Shown here: positions 19,072 through 26,734 of the stretch, one piece after another | Position numbering within the stretch: the first letter of the stretch is position 1 | How the letters are laid out: the number at the start of each line of letters is the position of its first letter | Source of the DNA: an uncultured Clostridia bacterium | GTDB lineage: Bacteria > Bacillota > Clostridia > TANB77 > CAG-508 | DNA length: 64,000 bases | Direction: 5' to 3' | NCBI GenBank assembly: GCA_947627755.1 | Contig: CANQXD010000004.1 | Span: 6,441 to 70,440, forward strand | Translations under genes and position numbers: made by a program | Notes under the pieces: generated by a model | What the model saw: only the letters and a program-made list of their open reading frames with translations | What the model was told of the DNA's origin: nothing | The model's database searches: none

Positions 19072-20127
19072 TCATAAGTATGTCCGTTTGGTAGCCTTAA
19101 AAGTCATTTGAAGTGATGGAACTCCATAATTTATAATACTACCATTGCAGGCAAAGTTTGCTCCCTTAGTTGTATCCCATAAATAAATAATTAAAAGATT
19201 GTTTGGTTCTGCATTTTCAACAGTGCACCAAGTAGATATGCTAACTAAAGTATCTTCTGTTGCAGTATAAGTAAAAAAGGAGACTTCGCTAGTACTATTT
19301 ATATTTTTTTTGTGAGCATGTGAATAATTAAAATACTGAAAACTATTTAGCAAGGTATCAAACTTTTTTGAAGATTCATTTAATGCAGTTGTTAATTGAG
19401 CATTTTGGGTTTGTGCTTGTTGCAATTGTGTAGTTAAACTTGCTACTTGACTAGTTAATGAGTTTTTATTTGCTTCTAAATCTTGTAGTTTTTTCTTACT
19501 ACTAGCTAATTCTGTCTCTTTTGCTTGTAATTGTTCTGTTAAACTATTTATTTGCTCATCTTTTGCTTGTATACTTCCTTCTTTTTCGGCTACTTCTTTG
19601 TTTAATGAATTGACCTCACTTTGTAAATTAGTTATTTGGTCTTGCTTACTTTTTATATCTGCTTGACCTTGTGCAACTTGTTTCGTTAATTCAGTTATTT
19701 CATTTTCTTTTTCTTGTATTTGTGATTTTCCTTGATTAACTTCTTCTTGTAATGTGCTTACTTGCTCTTGTAACACGTCTATCTGAGATTCTAACTCTTG
19801 CTTTTGCTGCTGTGAACTTTGTAATTGATTTTGTAAATCTTCTATGTTTTTTGTCAATTTATCTATAGTATCTTGCAATTCACCTACTGCTGGATAGTTA
19901 AAATTACCTTCTTGTTCCATTTGAGTATACAGTTCATTCATCCTTGTTTGTTCTTCTATTTGTGCTAATTCTATATCTTCTTTTGCTTTTTTTGCCATCG
20001 TGAATAGTCCATTTTCACCTAATACTAGGTTTATACTAACTCCTGCCAAAATAATTAAAATTACAATTGTTATAACTAACGAAATTAATGTAATTCCTTT
20101 GATATAATTTTGCTTTTCTTTCTTCAT
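19072..20127 (-). CDS. pilin-like N-terminal segment + long coiled coil + small C-terminal domain, paralog P3 (possible 3' frameshift)
   Basis: KGITLISLVITIVILIILAGVSINLVLGENGLF, then about 200 aa of Q/E/L heptad-like sequence. No FGE motifs. Confidence 0.6.
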   Translation of the reverse strand: MKKEKQNYIKGITLISLVITIVILIILAGVSINLVLGENGLFTMAKKAKEDIELAQIEEQTRMNELYTQMEQEGNFNYPAVGELQDTIDKLTKNIEDLQNQLQSSQQQKQELESQIDVLQEQVSTLQEEVNQGKSQIQEKENEITELTKQVAQGQADIKSKQDQITNLQSEVNSLNKEVAEKEGSIQAKDEQINSLTEQLQAKETELASSKKKLQDLEANKNSLTSQVASLTTQLQQAQTQNAQLTTALNESSKKFDTLLNSFQYFNYSHAHKKNINSTSEVSFFTYTATEDTLVSISTWCTVENAEPNNLLIIYLWDTTKGANFACNGSIINYGVPSLQMTFKATKRTYL

Positions 20128-20853: not shown

Positions 20854-21510
20854 CTACCATCTAAAATGTCCTGAAATTTTTTCAAAATGTTCATTTAAAT
20901 ATTCTAAGGCATCTTCTTCTCTTAAAGGTTGCCCACTATTATGAATTAAATAAGGAACTCCCTTTTTATTTCTTTTATCAGATATTATGCCAATATGGGA
21001 AGTTCCAAAAGTAACAATATCCCCCGGTTGCCATTCTTCAATTTTGCTTAAATCTGTAGTTAAATTTTTTGCATTTCTTTCAAAAAAGATTTTCAAATTT
21101 CCTACTCTGCGAAAATCTATGTTAGGATCTGGCTTGTTTTCTACTCTAGGATACAATTCTACATTATTTTTAATATCTTCATCTACCATATCTTTTAGAC
21201 TATACCCTGCATTCTTAAAAGCTCTCCAAATAACATCTGTGCAAACACCTTCTTCGTCTGGTGGATAGCCACCTGCATAATAGGCACTTTTATACTTTGG
21301 CGCTCTTTTTGCTTCTTCTTTGGCTCCTAATAAAATATCTGTATAATCATCAATGCCATTATTGTTATAATCTGTATCACTCTTTATAGTCTGGATTCCA
21401 AAATCTTCTGCACTATAAAATTCTTTATTCTTCTCATAAAAAATAATACCAAATATTGAAGCACACAATGCTAAAATTATAATAGTAGTTATAATAAAAA
21501 ATTTTTTCAT
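20854..21510 (-). CDS. DUF1287-domain protein (NlpC/P60-like fold), N-terminal signal anchor
   Basis: YYAGGYPPDEEGVCTDVIWRAFKNAGY ... WQPGDIVTFG.SHIGIISDK matches my memory of DUF1287. Confidence 0.7.
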   Translation of the reverse strand: MKKFFIITTIIILALCASIFGIIFYEKNKEFYSAEDFGIQTIKSDTDYNNNGIDDYTDILLGAKEEAKRAPKYKSAYYAGGYPPDEEGVCTDVIWRAFKNAGYSLKDMVDEDIKNNVELYPRVENKPDPNIDFRRVGNLKIFFERNAKNLTTDLSKIEEWQPGDIVTFGTSHIGIISDKRNKKGVPYLIHNSGQPLREEDALEYLNEHFEKISGHFRW

Positions 21511-21605
21511 TTTAATAACATTCCTTTCCTTGTTGTCTCTTACTAATAATTATACATAAGAAAAGAATATAAACTATGAAATTTATAAAATCTTAAGAAA
21601 AACTA

Positions 21606-21634
21606 TTGCTTTTATAAATAAAAAGATTTATAAT
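21606..21634 (+). promoter_or_regulatory. sigma-A-type promoter of the type III TA locus
   Basis: TTGCTT (21606-21611), 17-nt spacer, TATAAT (21629-21634). Confidence 0.6.
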
Positions 21635-21646
21635 GAATATACTAAT

Positions 21647-21666
21647 ATTGATAAAATATTTTATCA
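21647..21666 (+). promoter_or_regulatory. perfect 20-bp palindrome just downstream of the -10 (candidate operator)
   Basis: TTGATAAAATATTTTATCAA read directly. Confidence 0.4.
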
Positions 21667-21670
21667 AAAA

Positions 21671-21823
21671 ACTAGGTTAACACTAACCTTTGACTCAGTT
21701 CATAAACAAGTGTGTTTTAACATTAGGTTAGATATGAGCCTTTAGGATGAAATCCTATAAACGAATATCCTTTTGAACATTAGGTTAGAAACGAGCCTTT
21801 AGTTTTACTATAAACGAGTTTCC
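21671..21823 (+). ncRNA. toxI: ToxI-like tandem-repeat antitoxin RNA (about 2.8 imperfect units of about 48-57 nt)
   Basis: The units start near 21671, 21719 and 21776 and share AACATTAGGTTAGA, GAGCCTTTAG and TATAAACGA cores. The array lies between a promoter and a terminator, immediately upstream of a ToxN-family ORF. Confidence 0.75.
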
Positions 21824-21834
21824 AAAAAAATTAT

Positions 21835-21864
21835 GGGGGTACTAAAAAGTATCCCCTATTTTTG
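21835..21864 (+). terminator. intrinsic terminator between the RNA repeats and the toxin gene
   Basis: GGGGGTACT-AAAA-AGTATCCCC forms a 9-bp stem (one G-U pair) and is followed by TATTTTT. Confidence 0.75.
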
Positions 21865-21879
21865 TGAAAGGATATGTAT

Positions 21880-22425
21880 ATGAAAAATAGTAAAAAATTA
21901 AAAATAAAAAAATTAAATTTCTATATTATTGACAATGACTATATAGATTTTTTAAGTAAATTTGAGAACCACATTGCTTATAATAAAAATGAGAAAAGAC
22001 CTTATATTGGAGTAGTTCTTGTAATAAAAGAACATTATTATTTTGCTCCTTTGTTTTCTCCAAAGAAAAAACACAAAACTTATAAAAATAATTTAACTTT
22101 CTTTAAAATTATAAATGAAAAGACAAAAAATAATTTAGGAATTATAAGGTTTTCAGATATGATTCCAGTACCAGAAGATTGTGTGTATTTATTAGATATG
22201 AAAAGTAAAAGTTATGGATATAAAAGGCTTTTATCTGAACAATATTCCTATATAAATAAGCCTAACAATAGACAAAAAATTATAGAAAAAGCAGAAAAAA
22301 TCTATCATATAGTTACCAATAATAAAAATAGCAAAGTATCAAAATTTTATAAAGATTTAAGTTGCAATTTTAAATTATTAGAAGAAAAGTGTTTAGAGTA
22401 CAAAATTAAACAAACAAAGGTATAA
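21880..22425 (+). CDS. toxN: type III toxin-antitoxin system toxin, ToxN/AbiQ-family endoribonuclease
   Basis: LNFYIIDNDYIDFLSKFE, KRPYIGVVLVIKEHYYFAPLFSPKKKH and LGIIRFSDMIPV parallel the ToxN/AbiQ N-terminal motifs as I remember them. An AAAGGA RBS lies 8 nt before the ATG at 21880. The track start at 21874 is an alternative. Confidence 0.8.
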   Translation: MKNSKKLKIKKLNFYIIDNDYIDFLSKFENHIAYNKNEKRPYIGVVLVIKEHYYFAPLFSPKKKHKTYKNNLTFFKIINEKTKNNLGIIRFSDMIPVPEDCVYLLDMKSKSYGYKRLLSEQYSYINKPNNRQKIIEKAEKIYHIVTNNKNSKVSKFYKDLSCNFKLLEEKCLEYKIKQTKV

Positions 22426-22466
22426 ATTTTTTAATCATTTTATACCTCTGTTATTACTAATGAAAC

Positions 22467-22508
22467 AAAAGGGATAGATGGTGCAAATGGAAACGTCCCT
22501 AAAGGTAC
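22467..22508 (-). repeat. GGGAC-core element family A copy that overlaps the sigma-factor stop codon
   Basis: The minus strand reads GTACCTTTAGGGACGTTTCCATTTGCACCATCTATCCCTTTT. The TAG inside it terminates ORF 22499-23470. Confidence 0.75.
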
Positions 22509-23470
22509 TTTTTGTATTTTTGTTGTGCAAAGATAATGCTAAAGAAGATTGTAGCACATAGTGAAATGCTGGTAATTCCAATTAGTGCAATATCTAGCCA
22601 AGTTTCTAAAGGCTTACCTAGCACAAAAGATTCTTGTCCTGATTGGCTTTGTACTACTTCTTGCTGTATTTCATGCTCATTTTCATATTGTTCTTTATTT
22701 TGTTCTATTTCATTTTTACTATTAAAATTGCTATCTATTTCTTGGTTTTCTTTGTCGCTTTTCGATGGCTGTTGCTCTATTGCCTCACTATCTAGTCTGT
22801 CGTTTTCCGATTTGCTAGAAGAAGTTGTAGAATCTATTATAGTGTTTGCTTCTATTTCTTCGCTTTGCGCCATATTAGCACTTCTTTTTTTGCCACCTAG
22901 TAATTTACTAACACATATTGTTGCCGTTACAATAAATAGCGATAAATTTCCTATTAGTAATTTTAAACTATGAAGTGATTTATAATATTTCCATTGTACT
23001 GTTCCGATTGGCATATTTAAAAGTTTGGCAATTTCTTTAAAAGATAGTCCTATTTCTACTTTTAACGAAATAATTTGTTTTTCTTTTTGCTCTAACGAAG
23101 AAATGATATTTTGGTAAGTGTTTTTTCCTACTATTTCCTCTATGGTATCTTCTTTGCCTTTTTCTTCAATTTCTTCTATTTGAAGCGTTTCCTTATTTTT
23201 TCGTAAATACGAAATTGCTTCATTTTTTGTTACGGAGTAAAGCCAGCTTGCTTCATAGTTACTTGGAAGTTTTTCTTTTGAAAGATTTCCTATTTTGATA
23301 AATACATTTTGCATGATATCTTCTGCATTTTCCTTGTTTTTTAAAATAGAAAATGCAATTTGGTACACTAAGGAAGAATACTTTTGGTATAATTCTTCAT
23401 AGGCTGTTTTATCTTCTTCTTTTAGTTTTTCAAATAATGTATGTAATTCTTGTTCATTTATTTTACTCAT
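22499..23470 (-). CDS. sigma-70/ECF-type sigma factor fused to a TM helix, an acidic low-complexity region and a second C-terminal TM helix
   Basis: A region-2-like segment (YELYQKYSSLVYQIAFSILKNKENAEDIMQNVF) and a region-4 HTH (LSFKEIAKLLNMPIGTVQWKYYKSL), then LSLFIVTATICVSKLL, an S/E/Q-rich stretch and ALIGITSISLCATIFFSIIF. Confidence 0.7.
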   Translation of the reverse strand: MSKINEQELHTLFEKLKEEDKTAYEELYQKYSSLVYQIAFSILKNKENAEDIMQNVFIKIGNLSKEKLPSNYEASWLYSVTKNEAISYLRKNKETLQIEEIEEKGKEDTIEEIVGKNTYQNIISSLEQKEKQIISLKVEIGLSFKEIAKLLNMPIGTVQWKYYKSLHSLKLLIGNLSLFIVTATICVSKLLGGKKRSANMAQSEEIEANTIIDSTTSSSKSENDRLDSEAIEQQPSKSDKENQEIDSNFNSKNEIEQNKEQYENEHEIQQEVVQSQSGQESFVLGKPLETWLDIALIGITSISLCATIFFSIIFAQQKYKKYL

Positions 23471-25417: not shown

Positions 25418-26734
25418 TTATGCTGTTTCTTCTGTTCGATTCGTATTTTTTCTTTGTGGTTTTGATGTTTTATTTTTGATTAGTTCTTTTTTATCATTGA
25501 TAACTAATTTTGGTGCTTTCTTTTCTAGCACTGTTTCTTTTGTTACAATACATTTTTCTATTCTTGGGTTAGATGGAATGTCAAACATAATGTCTCTCAT
25601 TATTTCTTCTATAATAGAACGTAAGCCTCTTGCTCCTGTTTTTCTTTCTAAAGCTTTATCTACAATAGCTTCTAATGCTTCTTGTTCAAATTCTAGTTCT
25701 ACATTGTCTAACTCTAGTAATTTTTGATATTGTTTTACTAACGCATTTTTTGGTTTTGTTACAATGTCTATTAAAGCATTTCTATCTAATTCTCTTAATG
25801 TTGCTACAATTGGAAGTCTTCCTACAAACTCTGGAATTAAACCAAATTTTAATAAATCTTGTGGTAATAATTGTTCATAGATTTTGTATTTATGAATTTA
25901 TTTTTGACTTTGTACATTAGCACCAAATCCAATTGCTTTCTTGCCTGTACGTTCATTGATGATTTTGTCTAGTCCTTCAAATGCACCACCACATATAAAT
26001 AAAATGTTTTCTGTGTTAATTTGTATTAACTCTTGATGTGGATGTTTTCTTCCGCCTTGTGGTGGAACAGAAGCAATGGTTCCTTCTACAATTTTAAGTA
26101 ATGCTTGTTGCACACCTTCACCACTTACATCTCTTGTAATGGATGGATTTTCTGACTTTCTTGTGATTTTATCGATTTCATCTATATATATGATACCCTT
26201 TTCTGCCTTTTCAATGTCATAGTCTGCATTTTGAATTAGTTTTAATAAAATGTTTTCTACGTCTTCTCCTACATAGCCTGCTTCTGTTAAGGTTGTGGCA
26301 TCTGCAATCGCAAATGGAACTTGCAAAATTCTAGCAAGAGTTTGTGCAAGCAAGGTTTTTCCACATCCTGTTGGTCCTAGTAGTAAAACATTACTTTTTT
26401 GAATTTCTACATCTTCTTTATTTTTCTGTGGATGGTTAATTCTTTTATAGTGATTATATACGGCAACTGCTAATGTTTTTTTAGCATCTTCTTGCCCTAT
26501 TACATAACTATCTAATACCTTTTTTATTTCTTCTGGACTTGGTAATTTATTATTTTCTTTATTTAATGTGTAGCTAAAGTCTGCTTCTTCATAAGAATCA
26601 TCTTCTAAAATATTAGTACATACTTTGATACATTCATCACAAATAAATACTCCTGGTCCTGCAATAATTCTCTCTACTGCATCTTGTGATTTTCCACAAA
26701 ATGAGCATCTTATATTTTTATCTGTCTTGGTCAT
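25418..26734 (-). pseudogene. clpX: ClpX AAA+ unfoldase interrupted by an in-frame TAA at 25898-25900
   Basis: The 278-aa N-terminal ORF has the zinc ribbon (CSFCGK ... CDEC), Walker A (GPTGCGKT) and Walker B (IIYIDEIDK). The same frame continues after TAA with [20 protein letters not shown] ... [15 protein letters not shown] to the stop at 25418. 25898-25418 = 480 nt, a multiple of 3. Confidence 0.8.

Follow-up and report, generated by a model that had tools for sequence, protein, structure and literature searches.

The stretch analyzed here (the window) comprises 64,000 nucleotides (nt) of contig CANQXD010000004.1 from an uncultured Clostridia bacterium, and the segment at 21606-22425 on its forward strand is very probably an intact, chromosomal cassette of the ToxIN family of type III toxin-antitoxin systems, to which toxicity, RNA processing, and defense are attributed from what is described for the family. 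An earlier note made from the sequence alone had proposed a complete ToxIN/AbiQ-like locus here, and the protein family, solved structures, predicted fold, conserved architecture, and RNA covariation agree with it; all of the elements it described are present, at or within a few bases of where it had placed them. The cassette is organized as expected of toxIN, with one promoter upstream of the repeats and a Rho-independent terminator between the repeats and the toxin gene, toxN. The tandem direct repeats lie immediately 5' of toxN on the same strand, as they do in 81 of 81 intact relatives. The relatives are 124 loci in total, of which 80 are from a scan of species-representative genomes (uncultured gut Clostridia or related metagenome-assembled genomes from rabbit, human, mouse, and ruminant) and 44 are from a metagenome scan with the core of the third repeat unit. 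The window itself is chromosomal, with tig, clpP, clpX, dnaE, and other housekeeping genes nearby.

The toxN product matches Pfam ToxN_toxin (PF13958), the profile named in the earlier note, with E = 8e-43 over profile positions 1-159 of 159, and the PADLOC AbiQ model with 1.8e-45; the family motifs claimed for it, including RPYIGVVL, are found in the translation of 21874-22425. With phmmer it also matches the solved structures 4ATO (4.6e-23), 2XD0 (5.4e-20), 7D8O (5.1e-17), and 4GLK (3.8e-14), and an AlphaFold2 model (predicted local distance difference test score, 83.8) has template-modeling (TM) scores of 0.72-0.84 to these four ToxN/AbiQ structures in Foldseek, with MazF-family toxins far behind. 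ToxN_toxin is the only family above threshold in a Pfam scan of the product, and all of the solved-structure matches are to ToxN/AbiQ proteins, so nothing places it with cptIN or tenpIN; NCBIfam has no model for it. Translation likely starts at the ATG at 21880, which is favored over an upstream in-frame ATG by the spacing from the ribosome-binding site (RBS) and by the start of homologues. Homologues form 814 clusters at E ≤ 1e-10, many of them 70 to 96% identical, and those with names are labelled "type III toxin-antitoxin system ToxN/AbiQ family toxin"; 37 homologues at 69 to 96% identity share 59 invariant columns. Alignment to the Pectobacterium and Escherichia coli toxins (ToxN_Pa and ToxN_Ec) shows that Ser53 and Lys55 of E. 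coli ToxN are kept as Ser62 and Lys64, and that Tyr110 and Gln117, among the active-site and RNA-holding residues, are kept as Tyr116 and Gln123. Lys33 is replaced by Arg42, a substitution that is also present in E. coli clusters 4 and 5 (PMC8860590).

The putative antitoxin array consists of the three imperfect direct repeats that had been claimed, here delimited as three covariance-model units at 21669-21825. The model was built from 28 copies of units 2 and 3 together with the units of loci L062 and L063, and excludes unit 1 of the window clade. It nonetheless matches exactly three units in the 64-kb window, the sole other match being noise (E = 3.4), and in 499 kb of related loci it has 170 matches, all on the toxN strand and nearly all immediately 5' of toxN; it has none in the more distant clade L069-L080. 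A repeat search recovers two clear copies, units 2 and 3, as blocks of 31 nt at 90% and 16 nt at 88% identity, spaced by 57 and 53 nt with a 4-nt indel between the blocks, and Tandem Repeats Finder reports no array at the locus, owing to indels between the copies and to the strong divergence of unit 1. The shared cores described earlier, AACATTAGGTTAGA, GAGCCTTTAG, and TATAAACGA, are present in units 2 and 3, but unit 1 retains just TAGGTTA, CCTTT, and ATAAAC. Mean pairwise identity across loci is 0.789 for unit 1, 0.885 for unit 2, 0.902 for unit 3, and 0.688 for the terminator, and in toxN it is 0.907 at codon position 2 and 0.668 at position 3. Units 2 and 3 are thus more conserved than toxN third positions, indicating that the antitoxin RNA is under purifying selection at the sequence level. 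A search of the window with Rfam matches no family, and ToxI (RF02519) is absent even at E ≤ 10, where only noise appears; the earlier expectation that annotation would overlook the array is thereby borne out.

The alignments support a model in which each unit would fold as an H-type pseudoknot of the ToxI type, with loops 1 and 2 of 1 nt and a long loop 3 that carries a hairpin. In this fold the 5' strand of stem C sits within the loop of stem A (AGGUU/AGCCU), and hairpin B (UUUAG-N-CUAUAAA) follows the 3' strand of stem A and precedes that of stem C; the ToxI blueprint with this additional hairpin in loop 3 accounts for the 49- to 57-nt unit. Plain MAFFT alignment of 28 units gives 95% paired cells, versus 82% when shuffled, and both sides change at five of five stem-C pairs and four of six hairpin-B pairs. 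The covariation score is reached by none of 500 shuffles, a statistic inflated by the relatedness of the sequences, and slid controls fall to 29 to 52% paired. Stem A is 100% paired among these 28 units, with AU/CG/UA and UG/UA/CG variants, and among 119 distinct units aligned to the model it is 99.7% paired while lying outside the model; stem C, to which, with stem B, that alignment had been fitted, is 99.8% paired. In a whole-region MAFFT alignment of 58 loci, covariation between loci is seen in both stem A and stem C of unit 1 (GC/AU/GU and UA/UG/CG/AU), as it is in hairpin B of unit 2 (GC/AU/UA/CG), and RNAalifold independently predicts stem C and hairpin B. The U.G pairs in stem A and in the terminator are compatible only with RNA from the forward strand. 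Hairpin B varies freely, both in sequence and in length, in its distal stem and loop, and CCUUUAG and CUAUAAACGA are nearly invariant. From this we infer that hairpin B points outward from the protein, with the conserved bases of loop 3 packed against the core. Aligning and folding the units in search of a conserved pseudoknot, as had been suggested, thus favors the ToxI type.

Other structures were considered. A stem with tandem G.A pairs (GAUAUGAG/CGAAUAUC) in place of stem A is ruled out by the 99.7 to 100% pairing of AGGUU/AGCCU and its variants, and DNA-level iterons or an operator by the strand-specific U.G pairs and the compensatory changes. Minimum-free-energy folding of the whole precursor, which allows nested pairs only, gives long-range inter-unit pairings without covariation support and agrees just in the leader hairpin, hairpin B of unit 2, and the terminator.

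Toxin and array occur together in a manner predicted for a toxin-antitoxin relationship. Wherever toxN is intact and enough upstream sequence is available, at least two units are detected by nhmmer (81 of 81 loci), and all three are detected in 60 of the 81; in several of the remaining intact loci that were checked, unit 1 falls below the nhmmer threshold, yet is visible by eye or with the covariance model. Just two toxN homologues are without any unit, L060 and L077, and both are truncated. In the other direction, 17 of the 124 loci have arrays adjoining a damaged toxN, and a further eight arrays are without a toxN match. Six of the eight have enough space downstream for the gene, and several of these retain just its first codons, the remainder having been deleted. 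The toxin is therefore never alone, and the antitoxin often outlasts it. About 60 of the 80 species-representative loci have a common layout in the 260 nt 5' of toxN, in which the -10 box and then GAATATACTAATA precede a palindrome, the three units (the first of them diverged), and a terminator hairpin rich in G, with GGAGG last, and promoter, leader, three units, terminator, RBS, and open reading frame (ORF) are kept in 58 aligned loci of species-level genomes. About one-fifth of the toxN genes in the window clade look damaged. Among the metagenome loci, L088, L102, L116, L121, L125, and L127 are orphan arrays in which promoter and terminator persist and toxN is deleted. A second, partial toxN-like fragment lies a few kb from an intact cassette at L017:5861-6106, at L022:5362-5501, and in L077, which is on the same contig as L027.

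The control elements are listed in Table 1. The claimed TTGCTT-17-TATAAT promoter is read directly from the sequence, with transcription predicted to start at ~21641, and 48 related loci keep TTGATT-17-TATAAT, with similarity ending ~8 nt upstream of the -35 box. A scan for consensus promoters does not list the one at 21606-21634, because TTGCTT matches TTGACA at just three of six positions; the doubts raised by this weak -35 box and by the divergence of unit 1 are resolved by the comparative data. The hairpin and T-run described at 21835-21864 are confirmed as the sole terminator-like site in the 1.2 kb at 21400-22600, where 0.2 would be expected, and the stem is maintained across loci with GC/GU/AU changes (84% paired). 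A-rich motifs bound the units, with consensus sequences in the 58 loci of AAUAAAC-UAGG, UUAAACAUUAGG, UUGAACAUUAGG, and CAGAAAAAUUAUGGGG; known ToxN enzymes cut at AA|AU, GAA|AU, and AAA|AA (PMC8860590), and by resemblance these junctions are putative ToxN processing sites, with the exact bond likewise putative.

The 5' leader hairpin is 96% paired across the 58 loci, and hairpins of 6 to 8 bp with a 4-nt loop occupy the same place in eight leaders that differ in sequence, including that of the distant 36-nt-repeat clade. It is located about 10 nt past the predicted transcript start, a position that keeps structure, not sequence, across L001-L080; stem variants include UUGAUAAA/UUUAUCAA, GUAAUC/GAUUAC, GAAAAUAU/AUAUUUUC, and GAAGUA/UACUUC. 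Its role may be to shield the 5' terminus of the precursor, or it may be an operator, and we know of no earlier description of such a leader hairpin in ToxIN systems.

Table 1. Features of the ToxIN-family cassette, in window coordinates
Feature	Coordinates	Strand	Description
Evidently mobile cassette, extent	21596..22448	+	From promoter to a hairpin overlapping the toxN stop codon; between a DUF1287 gene and a sigma-factor gene
Promoter, sigma-70-type	21606..21634	+	-35 TTGCTT at 21606-21611, 17-nt spacer, -10 TATAAT at 21629-21634
5' leader hairpin	21648..21667	+	UUGAUAAA-AUAU-UUUAUCAA; perfect 10+10 inverted repeat, directly 5' of the first junction motif
Junction motifs (four, A-rich) bounding the three units	21666..21834	+	AAAAAAC-UAGG at ~21666-21676; UUUUAACAUUAGG at ~21715-21727; UUUUGAACAUUAGG at ~21771-21784; CCAAAAAAAUUAUGG at ~21822-21836
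Antitoxin unit 1	21669..21717	+	Diverged sequence, fold kept; covariance-model match 26.4 bits, E about 1e-3
Unit 1 helices	stem A 21674-78/21685-89; stem C 21680-83/21710-13; hairpin B 21691-93/21700-02		Stem C (A/G)CAC/GUG(U/C); hairpin B short
Antitoxin unit 2	21720..21772	+	Covariance-model match 78.3 bits
Unit 2 helices	stem A 21725-29/21737-41; stem C 21731-35/21765-69; hairpin B 21743-48/21752-57		Stem A AGGUU/AGCCU; stem C GAUAU/AUAUC
Antitoxin unit 3	21777..21825	+	Covariance-model match 69.9 bits
Unit 3 helices	stem A 21782-86/21794-98; stem C 21788-92/21818-22; hairpin B 21800-03/21807-10		Stem C GAAAC/GUUUC
Intrinsic terminator between array and toxN	21835..21864	+	GGGGGTACT-AAAA-AGTATCCCC at 21835-21856, then TATTTTTGTG; 9-bp stem and 4-nt loop, then UAUUUUUGUG
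Ribosome-binding site	21867..21872	+	AAAGGA; GGAGG in aligned relatives
toxN	21880..22425	+	Predicted endoribonuclease toxin of the ToxN/AbiQ family, 181 aa; in-frame ATG at 21874 would yield 183 aa

Among solved structures, the best match of the window toxin is ToxIN_Bt, from Bacillus thuringiensis plasmid pAW63 (PDB 4ATO; E = 4.6e-23, TMq 0.76). The two systems have promoter, about three repeats, terminator, and toxN in the same order, and units of the Bt type likewise differ from one another, stem 2 showing compensatory changes in a B. thuringiensis plasmid copy (L082); however, the ToxIN_Bt unit has 34 nt, its loop 3 is short and lacks a hairpin, the system is plasmid-borne rather than chromosomal, and toxin identity is only ~36%. 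The 34-nt Rfam ToxI model (RF02519), used as a control, matches a B. thuringiensis-type array and not the 36-nt ToxI of E. coli; as it covers only the former type, the missing Rfam match in the window says little on novelty or function. With ToxIN_Pa and ToxIN_Ec, from Pectobacterium plasmid pECA1039 and E. coli plasmids (2XD0 and 7D8O), the window system shares the toxin fold and catalytic Ser and Lys, the pseudoknot blueprint, the start of the unit (AGGU...(A/G)CCUUUA), and A-rich junctions like GAA|AU. The E. coli 36-nt ToxI, whose repeats we take to be identical to the paradigm P. atrosepticum unit, begins AGGTGATTTGCTACCTTTAAG as read from an E. coli plasmid, much as the window unit does, and the first 21 nt of the two are alike (AGGUgAuuugcuACCUUUA in the window versus AGGUuAgauaugAGCCUUUA). 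In contrast to the 36-nt units of ToxIN_Pa and ToxIN_Ec, with 3.5 to 5.5 nearly identical copies and 3- to 4-bp stems, the window has three distinct copies of 49 to 57 nt with 5-bp stems and a loop-3 hairpin, and its toxin has Phe for Thr52 and Lys for Trp57. AbiQ/antiQ of Lactococcus lactis (4GLK), in which antiQ consists of 2.8 repeats of 35 nt, is similar in fold (TM 0.76-0.84) and through the PADLOC model (1.8e-45), and has a hydrophobic residue at the Thr52 position as in the window, although its structure is the weakest of the four sequence matches (3.8e-14).

A further comparison is within gut Clostridia. A sister clade (L069-L080; 44 to 48% toxin identity) shares the promoter and leader start GUAUAAUGAAUAUACUAA, the leader hairpin, the terminator, and toxN, but it has canonical ~36-nt units (UUGGAGUAUCCAAGCCAUAAGUUGGAAUUAAAAA) without a loop-3 hairpin, which the long-unit covariance model does not match. 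The -10 box and transcript start GTATAATGAATATACTAA are common to the sister clade and the long-repeat clade, suggesting gain or loss of the loop-3 hairpin inside a single lineage of cassettes.

Long units have been described previously. Blower et al. (2012) report toxIN repeats of 31 to 62 nt and a two-stem ToxI template in which loop 2a-1b is short and loop 1b-2b variable (PMC3401426), which the window unit matches in stem order and short loops. The ToxI of Clostridium sp. HGF2 (entry 70) has a 12-nt hairpin inserted in loop 1b-2b (PMC3401426), the loop that carries hairpin B in the window, a likeness drawn from its description and not from sequence. Three ToxI RNAs of ~60 nt were reported and left unaligned (PMC3401426), whereas the window subfamily has a covariation-supported structure, again compared by description. 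Fremin and Bhatt (2021) list structured-RNA candidates located 5' of ToxN in Clostridiales of the human gut and suggest that these are ToxI (PMC8040213). Arrays of the B. thuringiensis type, of E. coli, and of C. botulinum likewise have units that differ from one another and carry compensatory changes. The earlier suggestion of a new antitoxin subfamily, based on unit length and divergence, therefore stands in part: the subfamily is apparently new and well populated, but 49 to 57 nt is within the 31- to 62-nt range, an inserted hairpin has been described, and non-identical units are known. Long, divergent units are within known ToxIN variation, and what appears to be new is the subfamily itself and its supported structure.

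The cassette is evidently mobile. In L001, the closest relative (97% ToxN identity), the intergenic site between the DUF1287 and sigma-factor genes is empty, and an 870-bp segment that is 95% identical to window 21588-22457 lies one gene further on, beyond a YgjP-like gene (window 21588-22457 was compared with L001:59-667 and L001:2716-3585). The window and the other loci share essentially no neighbors (~80 loci); together with the filled and empty sites, this indicates that a cassette of ~850 bp moves as a unit. Comparison of the window and L001 junctions shows no target duplication and no terminal inverted repeats, and only an 8-nt microhomology, AAGAAAAA, at the left junction.

A mechanism modeled on the family, in which repeat RNA made from a constitutive promoter, limited read-through, processing by ToxN, a closed ring, and release of the RNase upon loss of RNA are described (PMC3401426; PMC8860590), would operate as follows. 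The single promoter would give a transcript containing the leader hairpin and then three antitoxin units; most transcripts would end at the intrinsic terminator and a minority would reach toxN, leaving antitoxin RNA in excess over toxin. ToxN, a Kid/MazF-like endoribonuclease, would cut the precursor at the A-rich RAAMAUUA junctions flanking the units to release RNAs of ~49 to 57 nt. Each would fold as a ToxI-type H-pseudoknot with a 5-bp stem A, a 1-nt loop, a 5-bp stem C, a second 1-nt loop, and a long loop 3 bearing the projecting, variable hairpin B and the conserved CUAUAAACGA. Single-stranded tails and pseudoknot edges would bind ToxN monomers and keep them inactive within a closed ring of RNA and protein, whose stoichiometry is probably the 3:3 of the solved ToxIN complexes. 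A drop in antitoxin supply, through phage-induced shut-off of host transcription or loss of the cassette, would free ToxN to cleave A-rich sites in cellular and phage RNAs.

Several observations weigh against an intact ToxIN cassette with a role in defense. In the toxin, the catalytic Thr52 of ToxN is replaced by Phe61, and a Thr52Val mutant of E. coli ToxN shows loss of toxicity (PMC8860590); the RNA-holding residues Trp57 and Phe88 are replaced by Lys66 and Asp95. The window RBS, AAAGGA, is weaker than the GGAGG of its relatives. Across species, units 2 and 3 hardly differ in stems A and C, such that the covariation of these stems is mostly between units and relative to unit 1, L062, and L063, and the fitting of the 119-unit alignment to stems B and C belongs here too. 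The neighbors (DUF1287, sigma factor, YgjP-like peptidase, and clpX/clpP/tig) include no defense genes. No phage or plasmid copies of the window clade were found in viral contigs, INPHARED, or PLSDB; the viral contigs contain none with the RNA core or the toxin, and INPHARED phages and PLSDB plasmids have relatives at no more than 40% identity. Abortive infection would be a role assigned by family analogy.

If Phe61 signifies lost catalysis, the cassette could be an inactive remnant in which the repeats persist without function, and the weak RBS and many decayed relatives would fit. We regard this as very unlikely: the active enzyme AbiQ carries Leu at the Thr52 position, for which reason Phe61 is not taken as inactivation, and the clade, in which 59 columns are invariant, keeps Phe61 almost without exception, which points to purifying selection, as does the contrast between third and second codon positions of toxN. 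The RNA units are more conserved than synonymous sites, and the window shows no damage to the ORF, the promoter, the terminator, or any of the three units. That the repeats are instead a cis-acting 5' leader, an attenuator or protein-binding operator controlling toxN and not a trans-acting antitoxin, is suggested by their place in the 5' region of the toxN transcript upstream of the terminator and by the palindrome just downstream of the -10 box; yet each unit forms a ToxI-type pseudoknot of its own in which compensatory changes are seen, the A-rich motifs that bound the units resemble established ToxN cleavage sites, arrays outlast toxN deletion, and the U.G pairs favor selection on RNA over DNA, which leaves this reading hardly credible. 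A larger share of doubt attaches to purpose. The cassette could be a type III system in form and still be a selfish addiction or stabilization element, or a neutral passenger, rather than an agent of phage abortive infection; it occupies different chromosomal sites in close relatives, with an empty site in L001, shares almost no neighbors among ~80 loci, has no neighboring defense genes, and decays frequently (~19 damaged toxN genes and eight arrays without a toxN match among ~120 loci). Nevertheless, its relatives ToxIN_Pa, ToxIN_Ec, and AbiQ protect against phages (PMC8860590; PMC3401426), the toxin matches the PADLOC AbiQ model, and defense and addiction are mutually compatible, so we consider a purely selfish or passenger role a serious possibility and the less probable one.

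Returning to the ToxIN-family cassette, the unit-specific 5' strands of stem C, (A/G)CAC, GAUAU, and GAAAC, keep their array positions in 58 of 58 aligned loci. Conceivably, the three units are a fixed, ordered set rather than interchangeable copies, in which case the inserted hairpin B might yield a ToxIN particle with one of each RNA, whose geometry or stoichiometry might differ from the 3:3 triangle, or distinct stems might prevent misfolding between adjacent long units during transcription; we view this as a rather long shot.

These findings leave the understanding of type III systems unchanged and add to the known systems a large ToxIN subfamily of gut Clostridia, of which no member has been characterized. 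They provide a covariation-supported structure for a long ToxI unit, in which a hairpin that juts from loop 3 of a standard pseudoknot makes up the additional length, and a covariance model of this unit would let annotation pipelines detect an antitoxin that Rfam does not cover. The array being always beside an intact toxin, with arrays that outlive the toxin, is useful indirect evidence of antitoxin function.

Some neighboring genes have unusual features. The sigma factor at 22499-23470 (-) is of the extracytoplasmic function type (regions 2 and 4), with an apparent fusion to a transmembrane segment and a low-complexity C-terminal extension; it adjoins the YgjP-like metallopeptidase gene, and the pair is adjacent also in L001 and L002. 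clpX appears to be split at 25418-26734 (-), with a 278-aa N-terminal ORF that ends at 25898 and a ClpX-like C terminus in the ORF at 25418-25600; this could reflect either a frameshift, an assembly error, or a real pseudogene. The gene at 19072-20127 (-) codes for a 351-aa protein with a long Q/E-rich coiled coil that yields only coiled-coil noise in Pfam, and its N terminus, KGITLISLVITIVILIILAGV, presumably resembles the hydrophobic segment of a prepilin or pseudopilin.

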